DNA of 64,000 nucleotides from Octopus sinensis. Lineage: Eukaryota. Both the position numbers and the translations under genes were made by a program. The notes under the pieces were generated by a model, which saw only the letters and a list, made by a program, of their open reading frames with translations, was not told where the DNA came from and made no database searches. Position 1 is the first letter of the stretch. Each line of letters opens with the position of its first letter. Location of the stretch: assembly GCF_006345805.1 (NCBI RefSeq), contig NC_043004.1:10974001-11038000 (forward strand), in the 5' to 3' direction. Shown here one piece after another: positions 3,334-61,980 of the stretch.

Positions 3334-3800
3334 GGACGCAGGAGTGACTGTGTGGTAAGTAGCTTGCTTACCAGCCACATGGTTCCGGGTTAAGTCCCAC
3401 TGCGAGGTACCTTGGGCAAGTGTCTTCTACTATAGCCTCGGGTCGACCAAAGCCTTGTGAGTGGATTTCGTAGACGGAAACTGAAAGAAGACCGTCGTAT
3501 ATATGTATATGTATATGTATGTATATATATGTGTGTGCGTATGTTTGTGTGTGTGTGTGTGTGTTGTGTGTGCATATTTGTGTGTCAGTGTTTTTCCCCC
3601 CAACATCGCTTGACAAGCGATGCTGGTGTGTTTACGTCCCCGTAACTTAGCAGTTCGTCAAAAGAGACCACGATAGATTAAGTACTAGGCTTCCAAAGAA
3701 TAAGTCCTGGGGTCGATTTGCTCGACTAAAGGCGGTGCTCCAGCATGGCCACAGTCAAATGAGGAAAAGTCAAACAAGTAAAGGAGTAAAGAGTAAAGAG
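3334..3800 (+). mobile_element. SINE family A, full length
   Basis: Matches 249-650 throughout; (TAAAGAG)n tail runs into a (GA)n tract. Confidence 0.9.
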
Positions 3801-8803: not shown

Positions 8804-10096
8804 CGAGGGGCGTTCAATAAGTAATGCCCCTGACCCACTTCCCATAGCAGTAGAGCAACGAAACTTGGCACAGTTATTAATCTTTTTCTACATAGAAACC
8901 ATCCAGAGTTACGCATTTCTCCCATTGCTTGATGCAGCTCTGGGACCGTTTTTGTAGAAGACCCCAGCTTAGTCCGCCAACCACGACGTGACTTCAGAAA
9001 TCAAGGCTGCATCATCTGGGAAACGCTTTCCTTTCAAAAACGACTTCATGGCTGGGAAGAGGTGAAATTCAGAGGGTGCAAGGTCAGGATAGTAGGGGGA
9101 TGGGGGAGGAGTTCATAGCCGCACGCCTGTGCTTCTGATCTGGCGACACGCGAGTTGTAGACCGGAGCGTTGTCCTGCAGGAGGAGGATACCTTTGCTGA
9201 TCTTGCCCCGCTTCTTGATTTTGATAGCTTCTCTTAATTTCCTCAAAAGTGAAGCATAATAGGCTCCTGCAATTGTGGTACCCTTTGCCAGGAAATCTGT
9301 CATCACTATTCCGTCCTGGTCCCAGAAGACTGTGAGCATGACCTTGCCAGCGGAGGGCTGCACCCTTGCCTGCTTTGGAGGAGGTGAGTCACGGTGCTTC
9401 CACTGCATTGACTGGGCTTTGGTTTCTGGATCATTGTGATGGACCCAGGCTTCATCCTGTGTAATCAGTCTTTTGAAAAATTTTGACTCGTCTTCTTGGC
9501 ACATCTCCAAATTCATCCTCGAGCACTCGACTCGTTCAGGCTTCTGGAAAGGTGTGAGCAACCTGGGAATCCATCTGGCAGACACATTTTGCATATATGC
9601 AAATGGTCATGAATGATAGTTTCCACAGACCCGGTACTAATCTTGACCTCTTGGGCTATTTAGCGAATAGTTATGCGTTGATCTTCTAAAATGGCAGCCT
9701 CAACTTGACGGACAAATGCCTCATCAATGGCAGAAGGGGGGCGACCAGATCTGGGAGCTGTTTCCACAGAATTCCGACCATGTTTGAATTCATGATGCCA
9801 GCGTTTTACAAGGTCATATGATGGGGCATCATCACCATAAGTTACTTTCATTTTATCAAAAGTCTCCCGTGGTGTGCATCCTTTCAAATACAAAAACCGG
9901 ATCACTGCTCGACACTCAACAGGCTCCATTTCACACTTGTCTCAGTTCAAACACCTGTAAATCAGAAACCACAATTAGTTCAGAGCTGTAATTTGCCACT
10001 TCATCTGTAGAGATATAAATAATTGCACATGGAAAATTTCAGCTAGATCAAACAATTTCAAGTGGGTCAGAGGCATTACTTATTGAACGTCCCTCG
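8804..10096 (-). mobile_element. Full-length mariner transposon (about 1.29 kb), probably irritans-like
   Basis: About 37-bp TIRs, CGAGGGGCGTTCAATAAGTAATGCCCCTGACCCACTT and AAGTGGGTCAGAGGCATTACTTATTGAACGTCCCTCG, with TA on both sides (8802-8803, 10097-10098). Confidence 0.95.
8877..9929 (-). pseudogene. Mariner transposase, disrupted
   Basis: HTH plus RSGRP, WIPRLL, ITQDEAW, QDNAPV, YPDLAPSEFHLFP and WEKCVTLDGFYVEKD*; internal stops (for example at 9660) and several frameshifts. Confidence 0.95.
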
Positions 10097-20941: not shown

Positions 20942-22226
20942 CGAGGTCTGATCAATAAGTATCCGGACTGTTGCAATAGTAACGAAACTCAACCACGCAG
21001 GGAAAAGCCGCTTGGCAAATATTGACCTTGACCTCTACGTACATACGCACTAAGTATTAACGATCCAGCCCACTTCCGCTGTTTATAGTAGAACTTCGAA
21101 TGAAAGTGTGTAGCGTGTGATCGTTGCATTGACCATGACATGGTGATACCTTCTCAGAGACCTACACAAAGTTGCAGAAAGTGTATGGAGACGAATGCAG
21201 AAGCTGCACACAAGTGAACGAGTGGTTCAGACTTTTCCAAGATGGCCGAAAAAGTGTCGATAGTGACAAAAGTTATGGGAGACCTGTAATCAGTAAAACA
21301 GAGAAAAACATCGTAGATGTGCGAGCCACTGTGAGAGGAAATCGTTGATTCCAGCATCAGTGAGTTATCAGAGGATGACCAGATTACTTACGGTTCATTT
21401 CAGTCCATTATCACCGAAGCTTTGGGTATGAGACGCCGATATACCAAGTTTATACTAAAACCGCTTTCGGCTGACTAAAAGTAGACTCGGGTTTCAGATG
21501 CACCAGATCCATTTCATTGCGACGAGAACGATGAAAAATTTTCGAGCATGTTATTAGGCGTAGGAGTGGCTGTGATGTAAGTAACTTGCCTACCAGCCAC
21601 ATGGATCCGAGTTCAGTCCTACTGCGTGGCACTGGGCAGGTGTCTTCTACTATAGCCTCTGGCCGACCAAAGCCTTGTGAGTGGATTTGGTAGACGGAAA
21701 CTGAAAGAAGCCCATCGTATATATGTATATATATGTGTATGTGTGTGTGTTAGTATGTTTGTGTATCTGTATTTGTCCCCAAACATCGCTTGACAACCGA
21801 TGCTAGTGTGTTTACGTTCCCGCAACTCAGTAGTTCGGCAAAAATGACCGATAGAATAAATACTAGGCTTACAAAGAATAAGTCCTGGGGTCAATTTGCC
21901 CGAGTAAAGGCGGTGCTCCAGCATGGCCAAAAGCAAATGACGGAAACAAGTAAGAAAAAAAAGAGTAAAGAGTAGGTATCGTTAAGATTTTGTTAAAATT
22001 TGATGCAGATTCTCTGGTCAACTTTTTCTGTCATTCAGTGCGACGATCACTCGTTGCACACCGTCAGTCCAAGCTCTGTTTCGAACAGCAGAAGTGAGCT
22101 AAAACGTTACATCTTAGTGTGCATGCACAGCAGAGTGCAAGGTTAATTTGTACCAAGCAACCTCACTTTGCGTGCTTTAGCTCCGATACTATGGCAACAG
22201 TTCAAACATTCATTGATCAGACCCGG
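20942..22226 (+). mobile_element. Non-autonomous mariner derivative with inverted ends of about 200-250 bp
   Basis: TA-CGAGGTCTGATCAATAAG ... TTGATCAGACCCGG-TA; internal HTH relic SETYTKLQKVYGDEC..EWFRLFQDGRKSVDSD..GRP; 20942-21140 matches the reverse complement of 22030-22226. Confidence 0.85.
21556..21973 (+). mobile_element. SINE family A, full length, nested in the mariner derivative
   Basis: Matches 249-650. Confidence 0.9.
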
Positions 22227-24094: not shown

Positions 24095-24718
24095 TTCATT
24101 ATTTACATTACTTACATTATTTACATTTGGTGGATATTTGTCCTCATCTTGTTTGTTGTTAACACAACGTTTTGGCTGAGATACCCCCCACCGCTATTAT
24201 CAGGTGTCTTGGGGAAATTTCGAACCTGGGTTCTCATTCCTAAGGTATTTTTCGATGTTATTACTATTATTATTATTGTTATTATTATTATTACTCTCTT
24301 TACTCTTTACTCTTTTACTTGTTTCAGTCATTTGACTGCGGCCATGCTGGAGCACCGCCTTTAGTCGAGCAAATCGACCCCGGAACTTATTCTTTGTAAG
24401 CCCAGTACTTATTCTATCGGTCTCTTTTGCCGAACCGCTAAGTGACGGGGACGTAAACACACCAGCATCGGTTGTCAGGCAATGCTAGGGGGACAAACAC
24501 AGACACACAAACACACACACACATACATATATATATATACATATATACGACAGGCTTCTTTCAGTTTCCGTCTACCAAATCCACTCACAAGGCATTGGTC
24601 GGCCCGGGGCTATAGCAGAAGACACATGCCCAAGATGCCACGCAGTGGGACTGAACCCAGAACCATGTGGTTGGTTAGCAAGCTACTTACCACACAGCCA
24701 CTCCTGCGCCTATTGTTA

Positions 24719-24781
<63 letters not shown>

Positions 24782-24902
24782 TCACAACCTGGATTCGAAC
24801 TCGGAATCTTGTTGTTAGTAACCCGCGCTCTTAACTATTATGCCATATGTAAACAACGTAAATAATGAACATAATTCCTCATCTCTTAAATATAGAACTG
24901 TA
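24095..24902 (-). mobile_element. Penelope-derived terminal unit: tRNA-like head, (AAT)n, mutated hammerhead, plus an inverted copy of its own 3' tip at the 5' side
   Basis: Head at 24779-24850 (B box GTTCGAATCC); hammerhead relic at 24161-24208, GACAC-CTGATAA..CAGCC-AAAAC-GTT-GTGTT; 24858-24902 is the inverted 3' tip seen at 53767-53812; homologous to 29715-29900. Confidence 0.8.
24292..24710 (-). mobile_element. SINE family A, full length, inserted in the (AAT)n tract of the Penelope-derived unit
   Basis: Reverse complement of 249-650. Confidence 0.9.
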
Positions 24903-25174
24903 TTATGCGTTTACTTGTCCAATTGGATGTCGCATATGTCCTTTTAGCAAGACACTTGGTTTTTGCATTGCCTCAGTCCATTGAGCACTTATTGTCTTTT
25001 AAAATATAAAGGGCATTAATATATGTTGTAAGAGATTATGGTAGCTTTGCATTCCATTTCCTTTAAGACATATAATATTGATTTCTAGCATAGGAACGAT
25101 GTCATAATTTTATGGTGACAATACGGTCGGCTTTTACGATCCCAGTACGTGCCTGGTAGCTGTTGAAGCGATAC

Positions 25175-27560: not shown

Positions 27561-29714
27561 GTTGTCATGAGAGCAGAAAGTTCCCTTTGTAATATGTTTC
27601 ATCTACAATCTATTGTCATTAACTTGTTTCAGTTATTGGAGTTCGGGCATGTTTGGTCCCCACCTTGAAATTTTCTGGTCAAATATATCGCGGTATATAT
27701 GTAAATGTCTGGGACTTACTCTGTCAGTCTTACTTTTGTATGGAGAAGCAGCGAGTTCTGACACTAAGAAAGCTGAAGATTTCGTGCGTGAATTCTATTA
27801 GCTCATCGCAACCGAGGGATACACCGCACAACAAGTATTCAATGTGATGAAGCTTTTACATATGTGAAATTATGGGTTCCCGCGTATGTGTGTGACATAA
27901 GTTTCATTTAGACCCTTTATATATAACAATAAAAAAATGCTGTCCATTGGAACCCAGCAAAATTCCCATTTTGAAAATTTACACGCAAGGAAATGTGTAC
28001 AATACTTTTTGCATCTACATGCTGAAATTTTCAAATTTCTAAATTGTATTTATTTGTACCTGAGTATAAAATTAACAGGGATCGCACATATACCATCATA
28101 CGCGGTAAATTTTCGCCATAGTAATTACTTCATATAGTTTCACTACCTCAGTGTACTCAGATATTCAGACAGATTTTGTTCAGAATTTGACCAGGCCGGA
28201 CATTGATAACACTGTTTCTTGTATAAGTTTGCTTGAAAAACGGACATAAAGTATAGCAAAAGAGTAACGTGATATTCGGGCCATAATTTTTGTAAAAATA
28301 GAAATGAAGAAATAATATAATTTATTAAAAAAATATTATGGACCAGTGCAGTTTTTAGTAATATTAATCTAAACATACATCTTACACGCAAATGGGAGAC
28401 AAACTTGCATAGAATCAGAAATGAATGGAAACCAACAAAGAATATGATAAATCTCTAGACAGATTTATAACTACAAAATGGAAAAAAAACAACCCCAAAA
28501 TAAAGAAAAAAACAAACAAAAATCAAAATCAAATGAACTAGTCTTTCTGAGTAATACCAGCGAAAAAATAACATGACAAAAGAAAAAAAAATAATAGTTA
28601 ATAAAGATTTTGTAATAGAGAGAAAAATTGTGTCCCCAACGTCAGAATTAATTTGTTCTTATGACGCACGAACTTGCTCTGTTCAATGATATTTATCTCT
28701 GTATCTGAACCATCTACATGTAAAAGGCGACATTAGATGTAGATCGGAAATCACAACCGACAACCGAGAATGACAGTGAAGTTTTTATCAACAGATGTAT
28801 GATATTTAAGGTGAGAGTGGTGTTCATAACGTATTCACCTATCTTTCTTGGGTTCAAATATTTCTGTAATTTTTTAAAACAATAACTGAAATACTGACAG
28901 AAAACTATTATGTAGAGACAGTTGATAGGTAAAAATATAATATTGATAATTGGAGAATAAAACCAATGAAACAAAAAACCACGAGCAAGCAGTTAGGAAG
29001 AAAGTTGAAGAAAGTTAGGAATAGAATGAAGGCTTATAAATATCTCGACGATTTGTTTCTCATAAGATAGAAAACTGGTTCACCACACATAGGAAAAGCT
29101 TTTGAAACTTAAATTATGCATATAAAATTTTGCATAATTTTGAAGTATTTAAACATTATCTTTAAAGGAATTACATCAACGTCTTATCTCTCTTTCCTAT
29201 TAACGGAATCAGATACTGAAAGCTAAAATCAAACCTATTACCACTGCAATTCTAATGAAGTATTAGACGGCATATTTTAGAGGCTTACATTTTGAACAAA
29301 TAACTGAAGTCGACTGATTGTCGATAATAAATTTAAATGTATACGAATAAATTCGTACAAGTAAATATGGAGTTGAACTCTACAGAATAGGTCCCGTCTA
29401 AAATGTTCAAAACTGCAGAATAAAGTTAATAATTTCCAAAAACGTAGAATAGTGTTAATATTTCCAAATTGTACAGAACCAACAAAATAAGCTCCAGGAA
29501 AATTACCGCTACAAGTATCTACCAAATCCTTCTGTAAACATACCTGACCGTCTTAAGATGGATATGCTATTAGACATTGTTTGGGATAATACCGATTCGA
29601 TAGGGTTCACTATCAGAGAGAGAAGGAGAAAGGTAGCCAGTGTGTCCGATAGTGCAGAATGCGGAATATGCGTGTGTGATCTACTCGGCATTCATAAGCA
29701 TTGTACACTTCTAT

Positions 29715-29900
29715 ATTTGACGGATATTTGTTAACACGTTTAGGCTGATATACCCTCCAAGGGTTCTTCTCATTCCTAAGGTATTTTTCCATGTTACTAT
29801 TATTATTATTATTATTATTATTAATAAGGTCGCTGCTTTGAATCGAACTCGGAATCTTGGGGTTAGTAGCCCGCACTCTTAACCACTACGTCATATGCCT
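29715..29900 (-). mobile_element. Penelope 3' terminal region: tRNA-like cassette, (AAT)n, partly deleted hammerhead
   Basis: GGCATATGACGTAGTGGTTAAGAGTGCGGGCTACTAACCCCAAGATTCCGAGTTCGATTC, then (AAT)n, GAAAAATACCTTAGGAATGAGAA and TTGGAGGGTATATCAGCCTAAACG. Confidence 0.8.
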
Positions 29901-29921
29901 GTATGGAGTGAATTTTAGGGC

Positions 29922-30272
29922 TTATAAATCTAATATTTTCCTATCCTTCCTTAATACCGGTTCCCATATGCTATTCATATCTGCACTCGGTCTGCTTAGG
30001 AGGTTGTTGTATCCTAGCATATGTGCTGCTTCTTTTAATTCTCATATTTTCCAATTGTGTTCTTTGCCTATTATTTTAACTTCATCCTACAGAGGGAGGT
30101 GGTCTCCATTTTTCTATACATGATCAGCTATACCCGATTTATCAATATATCCTCGTGTTACAACTTTGCGATGCTCCTCTACCCTTATTTTGAGGGGGCA
30201 GCATGTTTCGCCTTTGTACAACCTACCACAGCTGCAAGGGATGAAGTACACGCAGTTTTTGGTCATATTCTC
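29922..30272 (-). pseudogene. Penelope-like element GIY-YIG endonuclease (C-terminal end of the ORF)
   Basis: KNCVYFIPCSCGRLYKGETCCPLKIRVEEHRK..KSGIADHV*..DEVKII..KEAAHM..MNSIWEPVLRK..*; three in-frame stops; absent from the ORF track. Confidence 0.9.
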
Positions 30273-30334
30273 TCTCCTCTATTGGAGACAACCTCTCTCA
30301 CACTGGCTACCCTTCTCTCTTCTTCTTTCTCTTC

Positions 30335-30366
<32 letters not shown>

Positions 30367-30454
30367 GTTATAAGGGGACCCTATCGAATCGGTATTATCC
30401 CAAACAAAACCGCCAAATATCCGTCAAATGTAACCGATGCAAATAATATTAATA

Positions 30455-30633
30455 AGGCGTAGGAGTGGCTGTGTGGTAAATAGCTTGCTTACCAACCACA
30501 TGGTTTCGGGTTCAGTCAAACTACGTGGCATCTTGGGAAAGTGTCTTCTACTATAGCCTCGGGCCGACCAAAGCCTTATGAGTGGATTTGGTAGGCAGAA
30601 ACTGAACGAAGCCCGTCGCATATAGTATATATA

Positions 30634-30727
<94 letters not shown>

Positions 30728-30945
30728 ATGAGTGTGTATGTGTTTGTGTATCTGTGTTTGTCCCCTCAACATAGCTTGGCAACCGATGCTGGTGTGTTTA
30801 CGTCCCCGTAACTTAGTGGTTAGACAAAAGACACCGATAGAATAAGTACTAGGCTTACAAAGAATAAGTCTTGGGATCGATTTGCTCGACTAAAGGTGGT
30901 GCTCCAGCATAGCCACAGTCGAATGACTGAAGCAAGTAAAAGATT
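30455..30945 (+). mobile_element. SINE family A, full length, with about 100 bp of internal (TA)n
   Basis: Matches 249-650. Confidence 0.9.
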
Positions 30946-31814
30946 AAGCGTGTTACAAACGTATGATATTTTATGTGACGGCTGTAATACTCTAATCCGT
31001 ATGTCAGTTCACCTGTCGCTAGAGCCCACTGGAATCTGAGCATTTCTGTACCATGCTGGTACATCGCATGTTAGAATAGATAGACAGTCAATTAAATAAC
31101 CTGCCCTTCTTGAATTTCACTGGTACTCTATTCCATCGACTGCGGTATGATGACAGATAAAAAGGGAAGATAATTTTACGATAATCGTGAAGATCAGAAA
31201 CGAACAATATAAGCCATTGTACCCGCCACTAACAATTCTATCATTTCATCGCCCTTTGGAGCACAGATTTATAGCGACTTAGATCTAATGATAAGTTTAT
31301 CGCGGCTTAAAATTTTGAAATCTTATTTCACATCTTTCCACAATATACTGCGTCTGATTTTTAATTACAAACCTCAAACCTTCGCCTCACCTGATAGTAT
31401 TTCAATGCTATTTTCTTTTCTTTCTCTTAAGGCTATCATTGTTTCACTTCTTATCTTTTGTATATATTTATGTACATTTACGTATGGAGACATATACACT
31501 ATTTCAATGTAGCAAGTCACTGATACTACAAAGGTGGTCAAATACATTCCAGTTGTCGTGTTGTAAACAATTTAAATTTCGCTCCCTTTTTTTTTTTACT
31601 TTTGATTTTACTTTATTCCCTATTTGATCTTGTATTCGGTTTTTCATTTTCTCTTTTTTTTTTGCATTTTATTGTTTCCCTTTTGCATGTGTCTTTTTAG
31701 TTTCTTTTAATTTTTCCCCTCTGCTAAGGCCTAGTTTTTGTCAGTCTGTGTTATTTTTCTTTATTATTCGTCCCCGTTTTATGATTTTAAGTTAATTTTA
31801 TGCTGCCTACCATT

Positions 31815-35761: not shown

Positions 35762-38212
35762 GATGATTTTTGATTTTGATTTTTCCAGTTTCAGCTTATG
35801 AGCTGTGGCCATGCTGGGGCACCGCTATTTGGTGTTGCTACTTGGTTTCACTTCATGAAGGCTTTCTAGCAGCTGCTATTTGGTGCATGAGAGAGTTCGA
35901 TGCAGCTGCCCTCATCTGCCCCTCCTGCCGTGAAGTTGGTTCATCTGGGACACCTGACAGGAAGAGATCCAGCTTCATTTTAAATACATCTGTATCCACC
36001 CCATGCAGGTCTCTCAGGTTCTTCGGGAGGATATTGAAGAGCTGTGGGCCTCGGAAGCCCAGGCTATCACAGAATCTTGTCCTACATCTTGATGGCAGGT
36101 TTGGAGTCCTAGGCACCACGCAGTGGCGCCCAGTTCTGGCATTTGCGTAACTCTCGATGCCAAAGTTCAGGACACTTCCCTCCAGGATCTTCCAGATGTA
36201 TATTATGGCATATCTTTCCCGCCTACGCTCCAGGGAATATAATTTTAATTCCTGAGTCTTTCCCAGTAGCTTACATTCTGCATAGAGGCTATCTTCTTCG
36301 TGTAGCTACGTTGGATCGCCTCGAGCTCTGTGATCAACTTGACACTGGATGGTGACCATAACTGAGAGCAGTAGTCAAAGTGGCTTAGGACAAGTGTCCT
36401 CCAGAGGACCATCATGGTTTCTTGTTCTCTTGTTCTAAAGGTTCTGAGGATCCATCCGGCCAGTCGTCTACATTTCATTGCCAATTTAGCAACATGTACA
36501 CGAAAGGTCGCGTCATCACTCATGTAAATACCTAGGTCACGCACTGATTGTGCCTCTGGGATTGCTATTCCTCCGGGTCCAGTGTATTCATTGGGTATTG
36601 CATTTAGTTTTGCATGCTGATAGTATAGAGCTTGAAACTTTTCAGCATTGAACTGCATGCTATTCTTTTCGGCCCACTTGTATATTTTGTCTAGCTCACA
36701 TTGCAGGTGTTTAGTGTCCTCAGGGTTCTGTATTGCCTGTGAAACTTTTGTATCATCTGCATAACTTGTGATCGTGGCTCTCTGCGTGGCTGAGGGCATG
36801 TCTGAGAGGGCCATTATGAACAGTAGTGGTCCCAGAACAGTGCCCTGCGGAACACCGCTCACTATTTGCGTGTTAATGGAAGTGGCCCCATTGGCCACTA
36901 CCACCTGACTTCTATCTTTCAGAAAGTCATGAAGCCATTCTCCCAGTTTTCCAACTATGTTGAGATCACGCAGTTTGTGACATATCATTCCATGATCGAC
37001 TTTATCAAAGGCCTTTGCAAAGTCGAGATATATCACTTCCACATTTGAGTGGTTGAGCAGCCGTTTCAGCAGCCAGTCATAGTGTTGTAGGAGCTGAGTT
37101 AAACAGCTTCTCCCTGGTCGGAAACCATGTTGGGTGTCGGGCAGCAAGTCATTTTCTTCAAGGAAGGTGATCAGCTTCCTTCTGACTATTCGTTCCATGA
37201 CCTTGCTGATGTGTGAGGTCAGAGAGATAGGTCTATAGTTCTTGGCTTCCGCTCTGCTACCTCCTTTATGAATGGGGCATATTTTACCTTCCTTCAGTTT
37301 TCTTGGAAGTTTGCCAGCTGCAAGGAAGCTCTGAAAGAGGAACTGCAGTGGTCTTGCTAGGACTCTCTTATATGCTTTTAGGAGGATTGCCGGGAATCCA
37401 TCGGGGCCAGTAGCTGAGTCTGTTTTCATTTCATCTATAGCCTTGATTACATCGTCTTCCTTTATATCGATGTAATCTATCGTCGCCGCCTCTGATTTTA
37501 TATCTGCAGTGGTAAAAAAGTCAGTTGGATTGGTGATTTGGAGATGCCCAAGGGGTGGAGTGAAAACACTCTTGAATTGCTCATTCAGTATTTCACTTAC
37601 CCTCATTGGTTTTCCTGTAAGTGTGCCATCCTTTTCGAGGAGTGGCCCTATTCTACAGTGCACCGTAGCTGTTTCTTTGGCATACCTGTAGAAAGCTCTG
37701 GGGTTAGATTTTATGTTGTCTATAGCCCAGGCTTCTTTGTCTGCTCTTTCCTTTTCATGGGAGAGTTTCAGACATTTTTCGATTTCCAACAATTTTATTT
37801 TTAGGCGGGACTTTTCACTGCTTTCAATCTGTTTGTTTAGGCGATTTGAAAATTTTGTACGCCGTCTCATTAGAATTTTCCTCTCTCTGGGGATTTTGTT
37901 CTTGTGTACAGTGGCTTTTCTCTCTGGGACATATTTGTAGCATATGGCTTGCATTACAGACATGAATTGTTGAAGTTTCACGTCGATGTCTGGCGAGGAG
38001 AGACATTTAGGCCAGTTTTGTTTGAGGATCTCTTTCTCAATTTGTTTCCAGTTTGCCTTATGGTAGTTCAAGCTGGAAAGATTCTGGGGGTTTCTTGTAG
38101 GCTGCATGTCCGTGCTCTCTTTTGGCCCGTACATGGTCAGCTCTATCATGTTGTGATCCGAGAGTAGTGTCGGTGTCACTTTCACATTATGGATGAGATC
38201 GATGTCATTTGT
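35762..38212 (-). mobile_element. 5'-truncated CR1/L2-group LINE with intact 3' end
   Basis: ORF2 from the end of the endonuclease to the stop, short 3' UTR with hairpin, and (AAAATC)n-type tail. Confidence 0.92.
35853..38212 (-). pseudogene. LINE ORF2 (APE end plus reverse transcriptase), one frameshift near 36245
   Basis: SDH, NYRPISLTS, QHGFRPGRSC, YLDFAKAFDKV, GVPQGTVLGPLLF and YADD; after the shift it reads LKLYSLERRRERY..GPQLFNILP..FKMKLDLFLSGVPDEP. Confidence 0.95.
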
Positions 38213-38429
38213 ATAGTTATACATATATCATATCTTGATACTCTGTGACTAGAATATACCTTGACAAGCCACATGCACATTTGTAGTTTCCAGTTCTCTG
38301 GTGTTATTGGATTTGTTGTGTATATGAACGGTTTGATCATTTGGTACTTTTGTATTGGCCAAGTGGCACTTGACGAACAGGGGTCAAAAATCGATCCTTA
38401 CGTTTTCGATATATGAAGAAATAGTTAAA

Positions 38430-39549: not shown

Positions 39550-39567
39550 TGAGAGAGAGAGAGATGC

Positions 39568-40160
39568 GGAGGCGTGGCTGTGTGGTAGTAGCTTACGAAG
39601 CACAGGGTTCCAGGTTTAGTCCCACTGCATGTCACCTTGGACAAGTGTCTTCTACTATAGTCTTGGGCCGGCCAAACCCTTGTGAGTGGTTTGGTAGACG
39701 AAAACTGAAAAATGCGCATCATATATATGTTTGTGTGTGTTTGTGTGTGTGTGTAGGCTGAAGCCGGAATCATATGCTTACCAGCCACATGGTTCCAGGT
39801 TCAGTCCCACTTCGTGGCAACTTGGGCATGTGACTTCTGGTATAACGTCGGGTCGACCAAAGCCTGTTGAGTGATTTGGTAGACGGAAACTGAAAGAAGC
39901 CCGTCGTATATATATGTATATATGTGTGTATATGTGTATGTTTGTGTGCCTGTGTTTGTCCCCCTATCATCGTGTGACAACTGATGGCGGCGTATCTATG
40001 TCCCTGTAACTTAGCGGTTCGGCAAAAGCCATCGATAGAATAAGTACTAGGCTTACAAAGAATAAGTCCTGGGGTCGATTTGTTCGACTAAATGGCAGTA
40101 CTCCAGCATGGCCGCAGTCAAATGACTGAAACAAATAAAAGCCTAAAAGTATAAAAGAAT
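39568..40160 (+). mobile_element. Two adjacent SINE A pieces (5' half, then a near-complete copy)
   Basis: Head at 39568-39725; second copy from about 39775 to 40160 with the GTCAAATGACTGAAAC tail. Confidence 0.85.
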
Positions 40161-40166
40161 ATGTAT

Positions 40167-41290: not shown

Positions 41291-42157
41291 ATATGGTGAA
41301 AAGAAAGTGAGGAAGAGTGAGCGGGAATGCGTGTGCAATGACTGATAAATAGAGAGATTGAAAGAACGAAGTAGGAACCAGATAAGAACAAGCGGGAGAA
41401 AATTATCACAGACACTAATAATTTTGAAATTCCTTTACGAAATGAATTTAATAAATCTGAAACATTAATCCATTATAATGTTTTTTGGGGCTGTTTTTTT
41501 TTTTTTTTGTTCTTCGGAAATTTCTCTAAATTTCCAGAGATAACTGCAATCAACTTAAAATTCAATTAAACAGCGGAGTTAAGACGAAAAACAGCCACAA
41601 ATGAGACAAGCGTCTCAATCTTGCTGTAGTTTCTATAATCGATTATTGCATGTTAGAGCCAAGCCCGCAATCTATAATTTATCAATCACTCTTCATTACA
41701 GTTCTGTAACCAAATACAAATGGAGTAAGTTGCACTTTCGTTATGTTGCTTTATAAATGACTAGCTACAAGCATTGCTTTTGTGTGTGGGAGAGTGTGGT
41801 AGGAATATTTCATTTAAATACCTGTTTCGTATGATATGCTTTCGAAAAGCGTTAGTTATATCTCCTAACTGCAGCCATAACAGAGCATAAGTTATGTATA
41901 CTCTCTTCCATCTTAAATTCCAGATTGTTTTTCTTTACTTGTGCGTTTTCTTTTCCCATTTGTTTTATTTCTATACCCATTTCCTTTTTTCTTTTATTAT
42001 TATTATTAACCCTTGTCAATGTTTAATATCTCAAAAACCAGTAACAAAGGAACCGCTATGTAGTCATTCGATCTGCTAGAAACAGCGGCTACGTCGGCAA
42101 ATTTGACCGTGTTTTCTTCCTTTTAAGAAATAAACGACATTTTATACGATGTAATAT

Positions 42158-42370
42158 TGGTTTCAAATTTTGGCACAAGGCGAGCAAGTTCGGGGGGAAG
42201 AGTCGATTACATCGACCCCAGTACCCATCTGGTACTTATTTTATTGATATCCGAAGTGATAAAAGTTAAAGTCGACCTCGGCAGAATTTGAACTCAGAAC
42301 GTAAAGACGGGTGAAATGCCGCTGAGCATTTAGTACCAGATGTTATCGGTTCTGCTAGCTCACTGCCTTA
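42158..42370 (-). mobile_element. SINE B variant with alternative tail
   Basis: GGTTTCAAATTTTGGCACAAGG..GTCGATTACATCGACCCCAG..GAATTTGAACTCAGAACG. Confidence 0.85.
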
Positions 42371-48375: not shown

Positions 48376-48532
48376 TACCTGCTTTTTTACCTGTCAAATT
48401 TAAGGACTACAACGTGTTAATAGTTGTTTTTGTAAACAAACTTTTATGTTTTTATTGCGAATGGTTTTACTGCGATAAGAAAGAAGTATAACTTCTTTCT
48501 TATCGTGGACACATGCTCGTAATAGATATATT

Positions 48533-49409
48533 CTTTTCTACTATGGACACAAGGCCTGAAATTTTGGGGGAAGGTGCAAGTCGATTACATCGACCCCAGT
48601 ACTCAACTTGTACTTATTTAATCGACCGCGAAAGGATGAAAGGTAAAGTCGACCTCGGAGGAATTTGAACACTGAACGTAAAGACAGACGAAATAACTAT
48701 TTCTTTACTACCCATAAGGGGCTAAACATAGAAGGGACAGACAAGGACAGACAAACGGATTAATCGATTATATCGACCCCAGTGTGTAACTGGTACTTAA
48801 TTTATCGACCCCGAAAGGATGAAAGGCTAAGTCGACCTCGGTGGAATTTGAACTCAGAACGTAACGGCAGACAAAATACCTATTTCTTTACTACCCACAA
48901 GGGGTTAAACACAGAGGGGGCAAACAAGGACAGACACACGGATTAAGTCGATTACATCGACCCCAGTGGTAACTGGTACTTATTTAATCGACCCCGAAAG
49001 GATGAAAGGCAAAGTCGGCCTCGGCGGAATTTGAACTCAGAAAGTAAAGACAGACGAATTACCGGTAAGCATATCGCCCGGCGTACTAACGTTTCTGCCA
49101 GCTCGTCGCAGACAAAATACCTATTTCTTTATTACCCACAAGGGGCTAAACATAGAGGGGACAAACAAGGACAGACATAGGTATTAAGTCGATTACATCG
49201 ACCCCAGTGCGTAACTGGTGCTTAATTTATCGACCCCGAAAGGATGAAAGGCAAAGTCGACCTCGGCGGAATTTGAACTCAGAACGTAACGGCAGACGAA
49301 ATACCGCAAAGCATTTCGCCCGGCGTGCTAACGCTTCTCCCAGCTCGCAGACAAAATACCACTACGCATTTCGTCCGGCGTGCCAACGACCCTGCCAGCT
49401 CACTGCCTT
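48533..49409 (-). mobile_element. SINE family B concatemer (four cores, three head segments)
   Basis: Units of about 184 bp; exact 13-bp TSD TAATAGATATATT at 48520-48532 and 49414-49426. Confidence 0.9.
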
Positions 49410-50696: not shown

Positions 50697-50878
50697 GGTT
50701 TCAAATTTTGACACGGGCCAGTAATTTCGACTCCAGTGTTTAACTGGTACTTATTTTATCGATTCCGAAAGGTTGAAAGGCAAAGTCGGCGGAATATGAA
50801 CTGAGAACGGGAAGACGGACGAAATGCTGTTAAAGATTTTGTCTTGTGCCCAAACGCTTCTGCCAGTTCGCCGCCTTA
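50697..50878 (-). mobile_element. SINE B variant, internally deleted
   Basis: GGTTTCAAATTTTGACAC..AACTGGTACTTATTTTATCG..GCCAGTTCGCCGCCTT. Confidence 0.8.
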
Positions 50879-51662
50879 ATGAAGAAATTTATTGCTTCCA
50901 TCAGCCTAGACTCGAAGCCGGGGAAGTATTCTATCACTGAACGGCTGACGTTTCGGATGAAATAGCGTATTAATTGAAAAGTGTTGTAGATACGCTCCGT
51001 TCATAACGTACAACTTCTCAATACTTCGCACTCGTTACACCATATACTCTTTGAATATCACATGGTATATAACTAAACATCAATATGCATTTCACTAACA
51101 GTGAATATTACAAATATTTCCTAATACAGCTAAAATCTCCCATATTTGTTACTGGTCAAGCAGCATCTGTTAAAATAATTATATTCTAGTAGATCTTGGA
51201 TAAATAGCATTTAAATAATAAAACCCGAAAATATGTAAAAGATTTTTTGTTTTAATGGAAGACGTAATAACAAAGTTTGAGGGAAGTTGGATTTTAAAAA
51301 ATGTAAAGAAAAACCTTCTTAAGCGATTAAGGGCTGAATAATTAATTAATTCATATTTATTTTCGTTTCTTTAGTATTTGAGTATTTCAAATAAATTACG
51401 TCTACAGATCTACTGTAGTATGTATTTTTGATATTGCAAAAGATAGCGTTACTTCACACATCATATGGCATCATCATCATCATCGCCTTTTTTATGCCCA
51501 TCATCGTTGTCATCGTCTTCCCCGGCTCCTTCTCCTCCTCCTCCTCATCATCATCATCATCCTCGTCGTCATTATCATCATCTTCATCGTTGTCCTCGTC
51601 ATCATAGTAACCTTCGTCCTCATTAGAACACACTTCGTCATTCATATCAACTTTTACATGGT

Positions 51663-52924: not shown

Positions 52925-53340
52925 CGGTTCTGCAGATGGAGAGAGAAGAGGTCGATAGAAGAAGTACGGTGTTTTACAACAAAGTAGCTACTATTGGTTG
53001 ATTCGTTGGACTAAAATTTCTGAAGGCGGTGCCCCAGCATGGTCATAGTATACAGACTGGAACGAGTAAAATATAAAAGCCTTATGAGTGGATTTGGTAG
53101 ACGGAAACCGAAAGAAGCCCATCGCATATATATGTATATATGTTTGTGTGTTTGTCCCCCAACATCATTTGACAACCGATGCTGGTGTGTTTACGTCCGC
53201 GTAAATTAGCGGTTCGGCATAGAGACCGACTGAATAAGTACTTGGCTTACAAAGAATAAGTTCTATGGTCGATTTGTTCGACTAAAGGCGATACTCCAGC
53301 ATGGTCGCAGTCAAATGACTGACACAAATAAATAAAATAT
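52925..53340 (+). mobile_element. SINE A tail fragment followed by a 5'-truncated SINE A
   Basis: GGCGGTGCCCCAGCATGG at about 53025; AAAGCCTTATGAGTGGATTTGG through GTCAAATGACTG at 53076-53321. Confidence 0.85.
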
Positions 53341-53499: not shown

Positions 53500-53770
53500 A
53501 TATTATCATATTATCATTATTACTATTTCTCTCTATCACAAGCTTTGTTGAAGCTCCTGGAGTCGTACATGCGTAGCAGGTTTGCTATCTGTAGCCTACA
53601 GTACCATGCCATCTATTCTTTTCAGCTAATACTTTCCTGGTTATTCTAGCCATCCCAAGGAGGCAACCTTTTGTATCAGTGCTACTGGGCATTCTATTCC
53701 TATTTCCTTTATATTCCCCGTGATGCCTTCCGATACTGTTCCCAAGGACCTAACAATAACTGACACTACA
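53500..53770 (-). pseudogene. R4/Dong-like LINE 3' terminus with (TAA)-like tail
   Basis: VVSVIVRSLGTVSEGITGNIKEIGIECPVALIQK.CLLGMARITRKVL, matching the VVPxIVGALG..QKxxLLGTARIxRKVL pattern. Confidence 0.85.
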
Positions 53771-53880
53771 TTTCTCTATTTAAGAGATGAGGAATTATGT
53801 ACATTATTTACATTCGACGAATATTTATCCTCATCTTTGTTGTTAACACAACGTTTCGGCTGATATACCCTCCAACCGAT
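53767..53880 (-). mobile_element. 3' tip of the Penelope-derived unit with the 3' half of the hammerhead
   Basis: GGTTG-gagggtatat-CAGCC-GAAAC-GTT-GTGTT, homologous to 24110-24190. Confidence 0.85.
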
Positions 53881-55590: not shown

Positions 55591-55644
55591 ATTAGAAGCA
55601 TAAATACATATCATATATGATGGTGGCGCAACTTAAGAGAAATA

Positions 55645-55848
55645 ATGGTTTCAGATTTAAGGAAACGTCAGCAGTTTTTGAGGGGATGAGGAATTCGATT
55701 ACACTGTCCCTACTATATGAATGGTACTTATTTGACTGACCCCGAAAGGATGAATGATAAAGTCGACCACGGCAGAATTTGAACTTAGTATGCAAATTCT
55801 ATGTATTTTGACCTGTGCGCTAACGATTCAGCCAGCTCGACGACTTAC
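55645..55848 (-). mobile_element. Diverged SINE B variant
   Basis: GGTACTTATTT..ACCCGAAAGGATGAA..AAAGTCGACCACGGCAGAATTTGAAC. Confidence 0.75.
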
Positions 55849-58844: not shown

Positions 58845-58929
58845 TGTGTCTTCCATTATAGCCTCGGGCCGACCAAAGCCTTGTGAGTGGATTTGGTAGA
58901 CGTATATATGTATATATATATATATATGT

Positions 58930-58981
<52 letters not shown>

Positions 58982-59187
58982 TTGTGTGTCTGTGTTTGTC
59001 TCCCACCATCACTTGACAACCGATGCTGGTATGTTTACGTCCCCGTAACTTAGCGGTTCGGCATAAGAGACCGATAGAATAAGTACTAGGCTTAAACAAG
59101 AATAAGTGCTGGGGTCGATTTGCTCGACTAAAGGCGGTGCTCCAGCATGGCCACAGGCAAATGACTGAAACAAGTAAAAGAGTAAAT
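58845..59187 (+). mobile_element. 5'-truncated SINE family A
   Basis: Body and tail match 249-650. Confidence 0.9.
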
Positions 59188-61010: not shown

Positions 61011-61480
61011 TGTCAGTCAGGCCGACCCTTTTGTAAAAACAGATGTTTTACATAAACTCAAGTCAATAATTGTAATATACATTTTTTTCTGCATTTCTTT
61101 GGACATTATATTATTGCACAGGATAAATAATGAAATAAAAATATTTCTCTGATATGCTGTTATCGTATAGAATACAAACACAGGATGTTATGGAGATAAA
61201 AAAGAAAACAACTAACTAATAACTGAATTGGTGGAAGAAAAAAATAAAGAGAAATGCATTTGTTTACTCATTTCAGATAGTTAACTGCTTTGCCAGAAAT
61301 AGCTGGTCTGGTAAAATATACTTCAGACTACAACATACTATAATTACAAAGGAATGGATACATTACATGTGTAACTCTAGATATACTATGCCGAAACAAA
61401 GGGAGAAACGATTGGAGTTTGAATGCCATTGTTTGCAGGACTGCTCGCTCGAGACTGACCTAAGGTTAAACGAAAATGTA

Positions 61481-61980
61481 GTTAAATCTTCCCCAAATAT
61501 TGGTCTCAAACTTTGGAACAAGGACAGCAATTTCGGGGTGAAGGGTATGTCTATCATATTGATCTCAGTGTTCAACTGGTACTTATTTCATCGACCCCCA
61601 TCCGGAAGTATGAAAGGCAAAGTCGATCTTTGTAGAATGTGAACTAAACACGTAAAGCCGGATGAAATACGGCTATGTATTTTGTCCAGAGTGCTAACGG
61701 CTCTTTCAGCTCGCCGAGTTAAATCTTTCACAAATATCGGTTATAAATTTTGGGACAAGGCCAGGAATTTCGTGAGGTGGGGTGCGGAGAAGTAGAATGC
61801 GTCGTTTCCAGTGCTCAGCTGGTACTTATTTTATCGGATCTGAAGAATGAAGAAGAAAAAGCAACGTCGACCTCAGCGGAATTTGAACTAAGAACCTAAA
61901 GCCGGACGAAATACGGCTGTGCGTTTTGCCAGCGTGCTAATGATTCTTTCAGCTCGCCGAGTTAAATCTTCCACAAATAT
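61481..61980 (-). mobile_element. Two SINE B variants separated and flanked by three copies of a 20-bp target repeat
   Basis: GTTAAATCTT(C/T)(C/A)..AAATAT-type repeat at 61481, 61718 and 61961. Confidence 0.85.

Follow-up and report, generated by a model that had tools for sequence, protein, structure and literature searches.

A tRNA-derived head in the pseudo-LTR of an octopus Penelope element, a probable internal Pol III promoter

A Penelope family of Octopus sinensis carries a tRNA-derived head in its pseudo-LTR (pLTR). It is probable (at a rough probability of 0.6, judged from sequence) that this head serves as an internal promoter for Pol III and so determines where the Penelope RNA begins, namely just upstream of the first base of the head. 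The family was studied from its copies in the window, a stretch of 64,000 nt (contig NC_043004.1, positions 10,974,001 to 11,038,000), and from copies sampled in the source genome (2.72 Gb). Positions in the element are numbered from +1, the first base of the tRNA-like head, and some computed positions may be off by one. The cassette consists of the tRNA-derived head, (AAT)n, a minimal hammerhead and a tail of ~85 nt. By domain order and layout it is assigned as the pLTR of an EN+ autonomous element of the Penelope/Poseidon type.

Features of the window

The features are listed in Table 1. A preliminary description had placed a tRNA-like cassette with A and B boxes, (AAT)n and a hammerhead after the GIY-YIG stop codon, and both order and place were confirmed, with the head starting at ~29900. 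The gap between stop and head is 21 nt in this copy, shortened by deletion, and 29 nt in most copies. The unit also recurs where it had been reported (24095-24850), at 24107-24849 with the head from +4, but its size was overestimated; ~420 nt of that interval belong to an unrelated nested SINE, so that the solo unit is really ~270 nt long. It had further been described as lacking any ORF, which is incorrect, since it includes the start of the Penelope ORF. The 3' tip, placed earlier near 53767-53880, was found at 53767-53877. As already noted then, no copy here is intact, the hammerhead being broken in all three window copies.

Table 1. Coordinates of the Penelope copies and of a second SINE in the window.
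Feature	Position	Strand	Remarks
Penelope ORF 3' end (GIY-YIG-type endonuclease region)	29922..30285	-	5'-truncated; 3 internal stops; 89% identity to family majority sequence
Stop codon TAA closing the GIY-YIG-type frame	29924-29922	-	
tRNA-derived head, ORF-linked copy	29826..29900	-	A box 29883-29893, B box 29840-29848
(AAT)n spacer, ORF-linked copy	29793..29825	-	
ORF start codon region, hammerhead remnant and part of tail	29715..29792	-	helix I 5' arm and CUGAUGA deleted
Inverted tail piece (+208..+241), upstream of the ORF fragment	30414..30447	+	
Solo unit, 5' portion: head (from +4) and beginning of (AAT)n	24713..24849	-	A box 24835-24845, B box 24792-24800
Unrelated abundant SINE interrupting the solo unit at (AAT)n and foreign to the Penelope element	24292..24712	-	ends approximate
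Solo unit: remaining (AAT)n, ORF start, hammerhead 24161-24208, end at +241 (short 3' end)	24107..24291	-	hammerhead core mutated at G8 and G12
Inverted tail arm (+221..+272) immediately upstream of the solo head	24855..24906	+	typical Penelope 5' inversion
5'-truncated copy, +155..+268: helix II, GAAA, tail; long 3' end	53767..53877	-	
Second SINE copies	247-695, 3337-3800, 21555-21972, 24292-24712, 30455-30947, 39566-40161, 53076-53332, 58845-59186		

Several other repeats were observed. The second SINE, which is the commoner one (~420 nt, with a degenerate tRNA-like head and internal (TA)/(TG) repeats), has at least 8 copies in the window, often inside the Penelope (AAT)n. The Penelope fragment is flanked by an inverted repeat pair with (GA)n (29577-29632 / 30349-30407; 59 columns, 85%), which was present in no other fetched locus; an inversion or the remains of a DNA transposon may explain it. 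A repeat of ~240 nt, dispersed and locally tandem with copies 70-90% alike (42153-42361, 48528-49360, 50727-50879, 55641-55796, 61480-61980), possibly represents repeated exons or a minisatellite. The 660-aa open frame at 36245-38227 (-) is by its motifs presumably that of an RT-type retroelement and served as a TTTT control (see below), and the fragment at 9046-9606 (-) is taken to resemble a mariner-type transposase.

The Penelope family

A majority sequence of 2926 nt was obtained by walking upstream from the endonuclease in RT-selected loci, with a median depth of at least 32 in each 200-nt block. It contains a single frame of 835 codons without stops, including the motifs YVDD and CVYSIPC...YKGET. 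The frame starts with an ATG at +113, passes through the hammerhead and tail, and stops 29 nt short of the following head, which gives the element the order ORF stop, head, (AAT)n, ATG (+113), hammerhead (+147), tail (+240/+266) and rest of the ORF; the pLTR unit carries the first ~50 codons of the 835-aa ORF. The frame is open over residues 7-287 in one natural copy (L232), and in a relative from the database (P0002) the same N-terminus is likewise encoded by the hammerhead, with 44% identity. RVT_1 matched the ORF with an E value of 5.6e-6, below the Pfam cut-off. Pfam GIY-YIG gave no match in the ORF, the endonuclease being assigned by motifs and relatives, and a PDB sequence search with the C-terminal part found no match.

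The single ORF with RT and C-terminal GIY-YIG, together with a pLTR recognized by partial tandem, optional tail and inverted 5' arms, corresponds to the EN+ PLEs. The layout pLTR-ORF-pLTR was found in locus L180, and inverted 5' arms in 49/86 head-selected loci. After 45 distinct endonuclease stops in RT-selected loci, the head was present in 41, partial in 3 and lost in 1, so the expected retention of the cassette in ORF-bearing copies holds. A count of 30/30 in EN-selected copies was set aside and replaced by the RT-selected count, because the search query itself had contained the head.

Exact 22-24-mer counts over the genome were 9889 for the tail, 6443 for the body, 2764 for the head, 908 for the stop and 733 for EN. 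After correction by exact-match rates (7/46, 20/45, 25/49, 14/46, 20/62), the rough copy estimates are 10-18 thousand for the head, 2 thousand for the stop and 30 thousand for the tail. The identity of sampled copies has a median of 88% and a maximum of 95.6%; the family may be silent today, since the sampled copies are decayed. It is also present in DNA contigs of three other organisms, as well as in contigs and RNA reads of a relative.

The tRNA-derived head

The head aligns in register with the tRNA genes of this genome, the best alignment having 50/74 identical positions and a score of 61; a shuffled control scored 34.5 ± 4.0, with a maximum of 51 among 500 shuffles. Arg-TCT was the best match and Cys was close, with 7 isotype labels among the genes sampled. 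A pattern search for the presumed source tRNA gave 0 matches. ARAGORN and Rfam, applied to the window and one intact solo, called neither tRNA nor hammerhead, as both are too strict for degenerate or minimal forms. The head no longer folds as a tRNA and its acceptor and T stems are degenerate; the A and B boxes are intact in the family majority sequence. The family has a tRNA-related head with A/B boxes, 5' ends at the head and target-site duplications, all of them features of tRNA-derived SINEs. The Penelope body follows the head in 78/86 loci, and 8/86 stop at or before (AAT)n; no large free-standing family of this head was found among the 86 head-selected loci, because the body is attached in so many. 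Its probable origin is the insertion of a simple tRNA-(AAT)n SINE into the UTR.

As a control, 79 PLE loci from metagenomes were used, of which 49 have at least 180 nt downstream of the ORF and several share one assembly. None of these 49 3' regions (25 with a hammerhead core) has an A/B pair between stop and hammerhead, and the sole A/B motif match lies inside a tandem repeat past the hammerhead. No tRNA was called in the control 3' UTRs by ARAGORN (51/79) or Rfam (14/79). ARAGORN and Rfam each called one tRNA upstream of a truncated control PLE ORF; the tRNA-like sequences at L312:2013-2080 and L341:879-953, upstream of truncated PLE ORFs on metagenome contigs, are probably unrelated to the head.

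The hammerhead

The hammerhead consensus proposed in the preliminary description proved correct. Its 46-mer motif has 761 exact copies in the genome (reversed control, 0), and the majority core, CUGA(U/A)GA, retains CUGANGA, with T at N7 in 114/150 and A in 33/150. It has the parts of the minimal type I PLE hammerhead, namely the CUGANGA and GAAA core, an extra base after A9, helix II, a short helix I and a palindromic helix III. The hammerhead begins at +147 and its predicted cut is after +182. From the palindromic helix III we infer that self-cleavage would occur only as a dimer; MFE folds of monomer and dimer did not yield the catalytic fold. At +180..+189, the site of the predicted cut, 25/376 5' ends were located, ~2.5x the background of ~1 per nt elsewhere, a figure confounded by the GTTAAC palindrome and internal deletions.

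5' and 3' ends of the copies

The head-selected sample comprises the first 90 of the 2764 exact head matches, minus 3 duplicates and 1 second arm, leaving 86. Starts fall within -22..+16 in 67/86 copies, compared with 12.3% expected by the upstream rate (P 6e-44), and are scattered over -38 to -779 in the other 19; among copies without an inverted arm, 28/37 start within the same interval. Copies thus begin in a sharp peak at the tRNA-like head, as the preliminary description had predicted, and not by random truncation. A separate sample was selected by the tail (first 70 of 9889 exact matches). Its life table (n=70) gave, in ends per nt, 0.0032 for the body, 0.016 for AAT, 0.0005 for the tRNA part, 0.029 at +20..-13 and 0.0022 for the ORF, so that the rate at +20..-13 is ~10x that of body or ORF. 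Stops inside the tRNA-like part amount to 1/38, and a lesser second cluster of 5' ends was observed within (AAT)n or immediately behind it. The exact counts drop 3-fold from head to stop over 66 nt and 1.2-fold from stop to EN over the next 105 nt. A promoter of any type at the position of the head would yield an identical peak.

Among 28 ORF-start loci, two start at -2, namely L241 and the near-full-length L221/L180. Four ORF-start copies in all reach the head, and the other two (L233, L238) continue through it into the endonuclease end; the succession of endonuclease end, pLTR and ORF start in these copies needs a tandem or circular template. The remaining loci are truncated within the pLTR. 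The downstream piece restarts at -13..+6 in 6/28 loci, the pattern that a template jump at an RNA 5' end would leave, and at +84..+106 or +181 in ~6 others.

The 3' ends of 376 copies include 122 at +266 and 70 at +240, and those of the 70 tail-selected copies lie near +240 (39) or near +266 (31). Target duplications of at least 9 nt (9-12 bp) were detected in 7/24 solos without inverted arms and in 0.4% of mismatched pairs. Mobilization by Penelope, as had been proposed, is supported by the two-site tail, the inverted pLTR arms and these duplications.

Transcription and proposed mechanism

If Pol III starts at the head, the RNA would begin a few bases (at most ~8) upstream of the first base of the tRNA, and RT would prime internally at +240 or +266. 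Internal priming at two sites was shown in vitro for an anole element (PMC11167929). Priming in the 5' pLTR, or on a solo RNA, would lead to run-off at the RNA 5' end after ~270 nt and hence to many solo units; priming in the 3' pLTR would give randomly truncated ORF-bearing copies.

The sense strand contains no TTTT in 2926 nt, 2.9 being expected in the ORF by codon shuffling (P 0.025); with T-matched controls, where a majority sequence is compared with single copies, P is ~0.05-0.06. G4 is likewise absent (1.1 expected). In 51 control ORFs of at least 1.5 kb the median is 3.8 TTTT per kb; one has none, several T-poor ones have a single run each, and none of the 49 with at least 2 expected lacks the motif. 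The unrelated retroelement ORF in the window has 3 (3.7 expected). No second PLE family was found in the genome as a control, all 50 loci examined belonging to the same Penelope family. The absence of TTTT weakly suggests that Pol III could transcribe the element from end to end. In unstranded RNA-seq of the relative, the pLTR was covered ~2000-fold per strand and the ORF N-terminus mostly <15-fold, with no pile-up of starts or ends; as it is unstranded and tracks copy abundance, it does not bear on the promoter.

It is possible, if rather doubtful, that the autonomous coding element itself has switched to Pol III. The head would then start a TTTT-free RNA of 2.9 kb, the two pLTR hammerheads would cut as a dimer, and the uncut RNA or a ligated circle would hold the ORF; the start codon lies upstream of the predicted cut, so the whole ORF would be found only in these two forms. 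The formation of circles is speculation by analogy (PMC4209133; PMC7229834).

Alternative explanations

An initiator-like TCACTCC, likened here to the initiator consensus, lies ~20 to 14 nt upstream of +1. The head may accordingly be read as a passenger SINE relic, the RNA coming from an ordinary Pol II internal promoter nearby in the pLTR, or the ends from a hairpin-induced fold-back stop of the cDNA on longer RNAs. Pol II-type promoters of this kind are a described case, the Penelope of D. virilis having an internal TATA-less promoter in its pLTR (PMC2377424), and the degenerate cloverleaf of the octopus head fits a relic. A GCCC-AC-GGGC hairpin spans the head start, with a fold-back arm there in 20/113 heads not joined to an ORF, and could for that reason add to the 5'-end peak; however, it has only 4-5 bp, the peak persists in copies without inverted arms, and RT hardly ever stopped inside the tRNA-like part. 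The upstream match extends no more than 8 nt before +1 in 109/113 non-linked heads and further in only 4/113, so that almost none of them includes the initiator-like motif. This reading is therefore considered unlikely. Processing offers another source of the 5' end: a longer transcript, of the host or made by Pol II, would be cut by RNase P at the tRNA-like head. No upstream match is present in 43/113 non-linked heads (including copies that begin inside +1..+14), as such a cut would leave them; however, 48/113 match at least 4 nt upstream of +1 (fold-back accounting for part of this), the acceptor stem is degenerate, as is the T stem, and neither ARAGORN nor Rfam called a tRNA, which makes processing very improbable.

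The preliminary description took the solo unit for a separate SINE or retrozyme lineage born of the pLTR. In its strong form, solos would be an independent Pol III lineage amplifying from its own copies and the autonomous element would use another promoter. Solos outnumber ORF-linked heads ~4 to 1, have target duplications, and carry both promoter boxes and RT start sites; non-autonomous elements derived from pLTRs have been published (PMC8557442; bioRxiv 10.64898/2026.07.22.740005). Hammerheads are intact in 21/96 solos vs 4/64 ORF-linked copies, groups that were selected differently, and the excess may reflect ascertainment or selection for uncut templates. Against this stands the comparison of 113 solo with 83 ORF-linked heads, in which no diagnostic allele remained after correction over 238 positions (smallest uncorrected P 0.0034) and body divergence was equal (0.052 solo, 0.056 ORF-linked); a non-autonomous lineage apart from its partner is thus not seen in alleles or divergence. 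B-box C56 is retained more often in solos (P 0.0034), a difference discounted as due to CpG and selection. Solo and ORF-linked copies have both 3' end classes in common, and the near-full-length copy starts at the same head. A second same-strand head was nearby in only 2/86 loci and tandem arrays were not seen in the sampled loci, so the head-to-tail tandem hammerhead units of non-LTR retrozymes are not a feature of this sample. On these grounds a separate lineage is not supported, and its strong form appears improbable. With internal priming, any RNA begun at the head yields solos and no separate lineage is needed; in view of the missing diagnostic differences, solos are most readily explained by run-off on RNAs starting at the head, and possibly serve as extra sources without diverging.

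Relation to known elements

Octopus OK, OR1 and OR2 are reportedly tRNA-derived SINEs, described by Ohshima and Okada in 1994. The solo unit, tRNA-derived like these, may be identical to OK or OR1; OR2 is listed as a CORE SINE (PMC4758252). Penelope/Poseidon PLEs such as the anole PAc (PMC11167929) share with the octopus family the single ORF with RT and C-terminal GIY-YIG, the pLTR and the inverted 5' arms; in PAc, too, the ORF begins at the hammerhead and continues across it, and the tail results from two start sites of RT. The minimal hammerheads of PLEs are likewise of type I, with an extra base after A9 and a palindromic helix III (PMC4209133). In the available text of these two reports, however, neither a tRNA-derived head nor Pol III boxes are described. 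The Schistosoma Sm-alpha and Sj-alpha SINEs are also tRNA-related, apparently transcribed by Pol III and equipped with a type I hammerhead, but they are non-autonomous tandem repeats with a canonical hammerhead, and the text available describes no ORF partner sharing the unit (PMC2770079, PMC6765202); the octopus unit is dispersed and belongs to an autonomous element, forming its pLTR and the beginning of its ORF. The TRIMp3 elements Cassandra, Helenus and Ajax have a Pol III promoter derived from a small RNA inside the terminal repeat, probably by SINE capture (PMC10886601). They differ in that all are non-autonomous LTR elements, whose autonomous partners were argued to require Pol II, whereas in the octopus family it is the autonomous element that carries the head. 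Non-LTR retrozymes (bioRxiv 10.64898/2026.07.22.740005; PMC7229834) and Chlamydomonas MRC1 (PMC8557442) are short non-coding hammerhead or pLTR units linked to PLEs, the retrozymes being defined by tandem units; in a term search of the available text of the preprint (bioRxiv 10.64898/2026.07.22.740005), tRNA, Pol III and octopus had 0 mentions. The literature searched contained no PLE whose head is tRNA-derived, and the family may have a Repbase or Dfam entry. Hammerheads in pLTRs, tails and pLTR-derived non-autonomous elements are already known; the tRNA head in a Penelope pLTR is apparently new.

Significance

PLE transcription and pLTR formation are known so far from very few elements. In the octopus, tens of thousands of copies preserve the trace of a single RNA 5' end and of two sites where RT starts. 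Their ends support the anole internal-priming model in vivo and account for solo pLTRs by run-off. A head that works as a Pol III promoter would represent a SINE-type promoter captured by an autonomous element, a counterpart of TRIMp3, and would open a direct route from PLEs to hammerhead SINEs such as Sm-alpha. An uncut or circular ORF RNA, if it exists, would sidestep the missing cap. Should Pol III make the coding RNA, this would break a working rule, by which autonomous retrotransposons depend on Pol II or on co-transcription with the host.
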